This document shows, one piece after another, positions 54,901 to 55,446 of a stretch of DNA of 64,000 nucleotides. The stretch's first letter is position 1. Every line of letters starts with the position of its first letter. The DNA is from Escherichia phage vB_EcoM_E9.1. The stretch lies in sequence record PP886230; one strand, written 5' to 3'. The position numbers and the translations under genes are program-made. The notes under the pieces were generated by a model that saw only the letters and a list, made by a program, of their open reading frames with translations, made no database searches and was not told where the DNA came from.

Positions 54901-55446
54901 ATGAAACATACTATCGAACAACAAGTGTTTTCACTTCAACAGTTCAGCGTTGTGAAAGCCACATATAAAGATTCAGTTTATTACTTAGCAGGGAGTAATG
55001 ATATTACTCCTTATGTAACAAAACTACAATCTGAACATAGTAAAGTTGATAATAAAGTACTTAAAGCTGGACTAGAGTTATTTTTAAAAGAACACCCTGA
55101 AAAAAATCAGTTGGATGTTCCTAAGTTTCACTTTATTTTGTTAGATGATCCTACCACACATGCAGAGTATGTTGAGTGTGTTTGTAGTGAAGTATTCCAC
55201 ATGGACCAAGACCAAGCATGGGAGGTTATTGAAGCACTAAACTCTTCAGTACATTCATATCATGTTGGTACATTTACTGATGAAATGTGTATTACATTCG
55301 CTGCAATGATTGACAATGGTAACGAACAACTGCGTCAAAATTTAAAATATGACAAAGTTCCATGCCAAGCAAATGGTAAAGACTATGATTCAGCACTAGA
55401 AGTTCTAGAAACACTGATTCGTAAAGATTACCCAGATGATATTTAA
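54901..55446 (+). CDS. Protein with ClpS-like (Clp protease adaptor) domain
   Basis: [55 protein letters not shown] parallels E. coli ClpS ([54 protein letters not shown]). Confidence 0.65.

Follow-up and report, generated by a model that had tools for sequence, protein, structure and literature searches.

A divergent ClpS-type protein with an added folded N-terminal domain, encoded next to IF3 in Rak2-like jumbo phages, as a candidate adaptor or regulator of phage ClpAP

In ClpS of Escherichia coli (ClpS/YljA; Pfam family PF02617; PDB entries 2W9R, 3O2O, and 1MBX), the residues N34, D35, T38, and H66 form the N-degron pocket, as seen in structures of the 2W9R and 3O2B type, with M40 as the gatekeeper and V43 and L99 as the hydrophobic lining. 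Another adaptor, SspB, consists of two parts, a cargo-binding domain and a short terminal docking peptide. Canonical ClpS carries a disordered and poorly conserved N-terminal extension (NTE), which reaches into the channel of ClpA and is pulled on while the substrate is handed over; blocking of NTE entry inhibits ClpS-assisted degradation, and canonical ClpS inhibits the degradation of ssrA-tagged substrates (PMC9663308). On the ClpA-facing side of E. coli ClpS, E79 forms hydrogen bonds with E28 and T81 of ClpA, and salt bridges connect E82 with R86 and K84 with E23 (PMC12493166). Here we analyzed the ClpS-like gene of Escherichia phage vB_EcoM_E9.1 (sequence record PP886230), an E. coli jumbo phage with a genome of ~350 kb, within a 64-kb stretch of its DNA (the window), to which all coordinates refer unless another locus is named; the IF3/ClpS-like gene pair and its signals lie on the + strand.

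The ClpS-like open reading frame (54901..55446) encodes 181 amino acids plus a stop codon and is the orthologue of 121Q gp48 and CBB_319 (PHROG 15940). The ClpS identity of the gene is already known from GenBank records, including 121Q gp48, annotated like several others as 'protease adapter protein ClpS', and from one review that names it a ClpS adaptor and proposes host ClpAP as its partner (Iyer et al., 2021). In the literature searched, we found no description of the three-part architecture reported below, of the loss of the NTE, or of experiments on any phage ClpS. The obtained results favor, with a probability of roughly 0.55, a ClpS-type protein peculiar to this lineage that would serve the phage's own ClpAP as an adaptor or regulator and dock via helix 3 of its ClpS core, whereas its N-terminal domain and C-terminal motif would add a strongly selected interaction.

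The Pfam ClpS model matched residues 74-144 of the window protein with 24.7 bits (gathering threshold, 23), and a precomputed PF02617 match is present in most of its homologues. Compared alone with E. coli ClpS, the window protein gave a weak match (E=0.17); a profile built from 54 family members recovered E. coli ClpS with E=1.2e-9. The E. coli ClpA, ClpP, and ClpS queries were checked against PDB alignments and by a 100% tblastn match. An AlphaFold2 model computed on the 54-member family alignment had a mean predicted local distance difference test score (pLDDT) of 87.6, reaching 93-97 in the ClpS core. The central part of the protein is a true but divergent ClpS core. The sequence-only reading had recognized a ClpS fold signature in the C-terminal ~80 residues; the signature is corroborated by the Pfam match, the family profile, and the structural model, but the boundaries had to be moved, as the core comprises residues 75-154 (55123..55362). 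The NCBIfam ClpS equivalog models scored the window protein at 19.3 bits at best (cut-offs, 107-159), and, judged by its sequence, the protein is not an orthologue of bacterial ClpS in the NCBI equivalog sense.

The ClpS core, which carries the pocket-equivalent residues D82, D83, T86, and N114 and a helix 3 with the invariant residues E128 and T132, is flanked on both sides by additional segments. Residues 1-64 (54901..55092) form an orphan N-terminal domain modeled with three beta-strands and two helices, in which the model predicts a fold for residues 6-64 (pLDDT 81-90); this stretch is highly conserved and leaves only ~5 residues ahead of strand 1. An N-terminal part unrelated to ClpS had been noticed before, correctly in kind but not in size, since it had been given 90 residues. 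The linker of residues 65-74 (55093..55122) contains the invariant P66 and V73 and a nearly invariant P74, the counterpart in the alignment of P25, the junction proline of E. coli ClpS; such prolines have been described for canonical ClpS (PMC9663308). After the core, a variable spacer (residues 155-163, 55363..55389), the least conserved segment of the protein, leads to a C-terminal helix with a strictly terminal motif, [LI]-E-x-L-I-R-R-D-[YFH]-P-x-D-[ILM] (residues 164-181, 55390..55443). This conserved motif, which had been missed in the sequence-only reading, contains the invariant residues E170, L172, D176, P178, and D180 and is kept in the most distant family members. A sub-threshold match of the C-terminal tail to the Pfam family TPR_6 (15.6 bits vs 26.3) was disregarded. 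The mean frequency of the top residue was 0.75 in the N-domain sheet (residues 6-35), 0.70 in the C-terminal segment, 0.54 in the ClpS core, and 0.26 in the spacer. A folded domain combined with a short, conserved, and strictly terminal motif on a module of the kind that associates with AAA+ proteases recalls SspB by analogy rather than homology, as the two have no sequence or fold similarity.

Relatives of the N-terminal domain were searched by profile among 1.84 billion representatives, and only the same three-part proteins were found, besides one spurious match. The latter was a PPC/RTX repeat protein (P0067), whose five matches to a short strand motif were judged spurious. A sequence search of the N-domain against solved structures returned nothing below E=0.2. 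Derivation of the N-domain from the gene for ribosomal protein S21, which lies between IF3 and ClpS in a Vibrio phage, was rejected at an hhalign probability of 0.3%.

The disordered NTE of canonical ClpS is not present in the window protein, where a folded and conserved domain stands in its place. Because this domain occupies the NTE position, the canonical delivery mechanism cannot apply unchanged. In the mechanism that we propose, the ClpS core would dock by helix 3, with its invariant E128 and T132, onto a ClpA N-domain, and the N-terminal domain together with the C-terminal motif would provide the lineage-specific function, either recruiting particular cargo to phage ClpAP or regulating phage ClpAP. 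The partly kept pocket (D82, D83, T86, and N114 with the hydrophobic lining) may hold a free N-terminus. The phage's own ClpA would be the likeliest docking partner, because the salt-bridge residues corresponding to E82 and K84, which fit host ClpA, have been lost.

The residue counts in the 54-sequence family alignment show how far the pocket has diverged. N34 of E. coli ClpS corresponds to D82 in the window protein (Asp in 42 family members, Asn in 10), D35 to D83 (Asp in 37, Asn in 10, Ser in 5), T38 to T86 (Thr in 48), and H66 to N114 (Asn in 30, His in 16). The gatekeeper M40 is replaced by A88 at a position that is variable in the family, and the hydrophobic lining is represented by V91 for V43 (Val in 46) and L148 for L99 (Leu in 50). 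The sequence-only reading had named missing N-degron pocket residues as evidence that would speak against a ClpS-like protein; N34/D35/T38/H66 became D/D/T/N, so that the Asp and Thr are kept, but N34 and H66 are replaced. The predicted pocket is thus conservatively altered, with replacements capable of hydrogen bonding, and is neither strictly conserved nor destroyed.

On the ClpA-facing side, E79 of E. coli ClpS corresponds to E128, which is Glu in all 54 sequences as well as in ClpS of E. coli and in the short ClpS proteins of phages. In contrast to this conserved contact, E82 is replaced by I131 (His, Ile, Met, or Gln in the family) and K84 by F133 (Phe, Tyr, Leu, or Ile). The only invariant residues of the core are E128, T132 (the equivalent of E. 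coli T83), and N141, and the ClpA-facing helix is its most constrained part because it carries invariant residues. With two canonical ClpA contacts replaced, docking on any ClpA N-domain is therefore not guaranteed. Overall, the window protein resembles bacterial ClpS in the junction proline, in the equivalents of T38, V43, and L99, and in the invariant equivalents of E79 and T83, but it differs from E. coli ClpS in its length (181 vs 106 amino acids), in the folded 64-residue domain for the NTE, in the extra C-terminal helix and motif, in the replacements N34->D, H66->N, M40->A, E82->I, and K84->F, and in not being encoded beside clpA. Agrobacterium ClpS2 (PDB 4YJM) and plant ClpS1 (PDB 7D34), paralogues with altered specificity, are also unlike the window protein, as they are cellular single-domain proteins with a free NTE.

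The jumbo phage lineage has a ClpAP protease of its own. Phage slurp01, which shares 99.9% identity with the window over the IF3/ClpS-like region, encodes a 762-aa ClpA (SCA80456.1), for which the best match among solved structures is E. coli ClpA (E=2.4e-180, ~43% identity). Both AAA+ modules are present in this protein, as are the pore loops KYR and GYVG; an IGM motif replaces the ClpP-docking IGL of E. coli, and the N-domain is divergent, with a Clp_N repeat still recognized at 24.6 bits. In phage 121Q, gp464 is a ClpP (141 bits in Pfam) with an aligned Ser-His-Asp triad and a C-terminal extension of ~20 residues, located at 65-760 of locus L006 (121Q 214300-219200). The RefSeq name of gp464, 'head maturation protease', probably results from name transfer, and gp464 is not taken as the head protease because a separate T4-type prohead protease is encoded. 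A second ClpP-like gene, gp473 (L006, 4121-4729), lies 4 kb from gp464 and gave a marginal 16.7 bits, with Ser, His, and Asp still aligned. Neither ClpA nor ClpP was found within the 64-kb window; both are encoded elsewhere in the genome. By genus counts, the ClpS-like gene and phage-type ClpA occur nearly one-for-one.

The earlier proposal that the ClpS-like protein redirects or blocks host proteolysis does not stand as such, since the phage lineage has its own ClpA (762 aa) and a ClpP with an intact Ser-His-Asp triad, and a phage-internal partner is therefore at least as likely as host ClpAP. A host-takeover module directed at proteolysis and translation, also suggested by the sequence-only reading, is at present a conjecture. 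As a modulator of the host protease, the protein would dock early on the N-domains of host ClpA and, having no NTE that can be threaded, would block or redirect host ClpAP; it might, for instance, displace host ClpS, shield phage proteins, or inhibit the degradation of ssrA-tagged proteins. Such a role would be compatible with the ClpS core and its invariant E79 and T83 equivalents, with the inhibition of ssrA-substrate degradation by canonical ClpS and of delivery by blocked NTE entry (PMC9663308), with a consensus host-type promoter that implies expression upon DNA entry into the cell, and with the partner proposed by Iyer et al. (2021). However, the equivalents of E82 and K84, which form the salt bridges to R86 and E23 of host ClpA, are replaced family-wide, the phage itself encodes a ClpP and a ClpA, the latter with a divergent N-domain, and the same invariant residues are found across hosts from Escherichia to Xanthomonas. 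We therefore consider modulation of host ClpAP unlikely.

The ClpA side of the interface was compared in an alignment of ten phage ClpA proteins, in all of which (10/10) the position of E28 is occupied by Asp or Glu. At the position of E23, the partner of K84, the ClpA proteins of E. coli, PA5oct, Atu_ph07, and Munch have Glu, and those of Vibrio phage 2.275.O and of six out of seven Rak2-like phages have Thr or Ser. The E23/K84 pattern would fit a re-tuned interface between phage ClpS and phage ClpA. As proof of a cognate pair, the co-variation was rejected, being only a partial fit with exceptions in the Vibrio phage (Thr with Lys) and in Munch (Glu with Tyr).

Several observations weigh against an adaptor or regulator of phage ClpAP. 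The co-variation at E23/K84 is imperfect, as just described, and the equivalents of ClpA T81 and R86 were not used because the MAFFT and HMMER alignments disagree on them. Two of the three canonical ClpA-contact residues (E82 and K84) are absent, and N34D and H66N alter the predicted pocket. The family alignment shows the highest conservation in the sheet of the N-domain and in the C-terminal motif. The folded domain modeled in place of the NTE would be incompatible with canonical delivery, so that 'adaptor' may be the wrong term and 'inhibitor' the better one. Finally, clpA is located ~83 kb from the ClpS-like gene, and there is no clpS-clpA operon.

Some of these observations would also suit a vestigial ClpS scaffold, in which the N-terminal domain and the C-terminal motif bind another host or phage target independently of Clp, for instance in an anti-defence or regulatory role. 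At 0.75 in the N-domain sheet and 0.70 in the C-terminal motif, conservation exceeds that of the ClpS core (0.54), the pocket and salt-bridge residues are altered, and the NCBIfam equivalog scores (<=19.3 bits vs 107-159) point the same way. We judge this scaffold quite improbable, however, as E128 and T132 are invariant on the ClpA-binding helix, T86, D82, V91, and L148 around the pocket are well conserved, and the gene is found together with phage ClpA and derives from an ordinary ClpS encoded at this place in the genome.

The family and its relatives bear on this descent. A search of 5.8 billion proteins yielded ~59 clusters, nearly all of 173-185 amino acids and full length, with many members on contigs of 250-366 kb; after the family members, the score falls sharply to an ordinary 102-aa ClpS at 37 bits. 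In the phage collection, the gene was present in 71 records, all of them Rak2-like jumbo phages infecting Escherichia, Klebsiella, Salmonella, Erwinia, Yersinia, Pectobacterium, Serratia, Cronobacter, and Xanthomonas. A short ClpS is encoded by sister jumbo phages that also carry ClpA and ClpP; it has 100 amino acids in PA5oct (EST35_0260) and Atu_ph07 (AUZ95447.1) and 118 amino acids in Vibrio phage 2.275.O (NVP2275O_046). The short proteins are similar to the window protein in being encoded by phage genomes with ClpA and ClpP, and the Vibrio ClpS has a C-terminal helix and an acidic tail; unlike the window protein, they are of canonical length, lack the N-terminal domain, and keep K84. E82 is also kept in the short proteins, or is Asp in Atu_ph07, and PA5oct ClpS additionally keeps N34, D35, T38, M40, and H66. 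In Vibrio phage 2.275.O, the cluster reads helicase ... IF3-S21-ClpS-KTSC ... topoisomerase II, with ClpS in the same slot as the window gene. By this comparison, the window gene is most plausibly a positional orthologue of an ordinary phage ClpS, to which the N-terminal domain was added in the Rak2-like lineage.

Proteostasis and translation genes are clustered repeatedly in this jumbo-phage group. In PA5oct (L017, 170153-175374), ClpX, S21, a small heat-shock protein, ClpS, an FtsH-interacting protein, and FtsH are encoded within 5 kb, and in Vibrio phage 2.275.O (L018, 30086-35331), S21 lies between IF3 and ClpS.

The ClpS-like region of the window is 99.8-100% identical to PBECO4-like jumbo coliphages (~350 kb, genus Asteriusvirus), and 121Q is 95% identical to the window over this region. 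The gene order IF3-ClpS-KTSC is kept in all relatives examined, down to 34% protein identity. The first gene of the two-gene unit (54384..54887) encodes a 167-aa IF3 homologue with both domains, according to profile matches with IF3_N (57.7 bits), IF3_C (51.8 bits), and the infC equivalog TIGR00168 (108.7 vs a cut-off of 60). The pair is preceded by a sigma-70 consensus promoter, TTGACA-17 nt-TATAAT (54311..54339), with 12/12 matches. The perfect TTGACA-N17-TATAAT was seen twice in the 64 kb (0.06 expected), and the promoter is kept before IF3 in 121Q (L001 8812-8840) and CBB (L003 4313-4340). The second perfect copy of the window is at 40886-40914 on the + strand. Between the IF3 stop and the ClpS-like start, the gap is 13 nucleotides; an AAGGA ribosome-binding site read from the sequence (54889..54893) lies 7 nucleotides upstream of the ATG, and no + strand terminator was found between the two genes. 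Directly 3' of the stop codon, the unit ends in an intrinsic terminator (55462..55514), in which a stem at 55462-55471 pairs with 55499-55508 and is followed by a T7 run ending at 55514. The hairpin has a folding free energy (dG) of -20.9 kcal/mol and z = -5.6, with 0/200 shuffles folding equally well, and the arrangement is also present in CBB and XaC1 (L003 5485-5545 and L002 5497-5540, respectively). The consensus promoter, the 13-nucleotide gap with its ribosome-binding site, the uninterrupted interior, and the strong hairpin with T7 after the stop thus corroborate the previously proposed single operon with IF3.

Near-consensus sigma-70-type promoters are located upstream of phage clpA and clpP as well. 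The presence of promoters of the host RNA polymerase type on all three Clp genes suggests their expression before, or independently of, phage late transcription, that is, early or host polymerase-dependent expression of all three. A literature search found no transcriptome for these phages.

Several features of the surroundings were noted. The motif ATAAATA, proposed as a T4-like late promoter (CBB paper), sits in the terminator loop (55482-55488), and the ribosome-binding site GGAG (55504-55507) for the KTSC gene downstream is located inside the 3' arm of the hairpin; read-through early transcripts would mask this GGAG, and late transcripts initiating in the loop would free it. The IF3-ClpS spacer of CBB is 60 nucleotides long and contains a GC-rich hairpin (GGGTGCTAAA...TTTAGCATCCC; L003 4895-4925) with no T-run behind it, which may serve in the processing or stability of the RNA and is not present in the 13-nucleotide spacer of the window. 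The gene always next after the ClpS-like gene encodes a KTSC-domain protein (55518-56063; Pfam 52.6 bits), is labeled 'DnaJ-like' in some records, and has a 29-nucleotide overlap with the next open reading frame, for a virion protein (56035-57624). Its orthologue CBB_320 was identified by mass spectrometry in CBB virions (four peptides); the list of CBB virion proteins obtained by this method does not include the ClpS-like protein. IF3 is always preceded by a 196-aa open reading frame (53506-54096, PHROG 16501), labeled a structural protein in 121Q, CBB, and XaC1, and a conserved 64-aa open reading frame (54120-54314, PHROG 15132), whose start is overlapped by a TTGACA-17-TATGAT match (54115-54143).

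The slot between IF3 and KTSC, shared with S21 in the Vibrio phage, and the fold that ClpS has in common with the C-terminal domain of ribosomal protein bL12 led us to consider a translation-linked factor acting on ribosomes or translation factors. No sequence-profile relationship with the bL12 C-terminal domain was detected, and its structural score was much below that of ClpS; we give such a role hardly any credence. The pairing with IF3 also allows a 'replace and destroy' scheme, in which the protein would be the specificity subunit of an orthogonal phage ClpA-ClpP-ClpS machine, with the N-terminal domain and the C-terminal motif capturing a defined host protein early for the phage protease. 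This scheme is highly speculative. If true, it would mean that a host translation factor or a defence protein, for example, is removed while the phage supplies its own IF3.

The names in use for the gene deserve correction. Besides the ClpS label, it carries the name 'hypothetical protein' or, by way of PHROG 15940, 'ATP-dependent protease'; the latter label (also in RefSeq entries such as NC_025447.1 gp48 and NC_027364.1) is applied to a family without an ATPase or protease domain. In WPEC3, the ClpS-like gene is called 'DNA gyrase subunit A', and nearby genes are wrongly named in CRJP21. These mislabels are annotation errors spread by automatic name transfer. Apt names would be 'ClpS domain-containing protein' or 'ClpS-like adaptor', whereas 'ATP-dependent protease' and, for the phage ClpP, 'head maturation protease' are unsuitable.

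A ClpS with a folded, conserved domain in place of the NTE poses the question of whether such a protein inhibits the protease or still acts as an adaptor, through nothing but tethering. Together with the phage's own ClpA and ClpP, the ClpS-like protein would form a compact and separate three-protein system in which this NTE question can be addressed, and it may reveal early degradation targets of a 350-kb phage.
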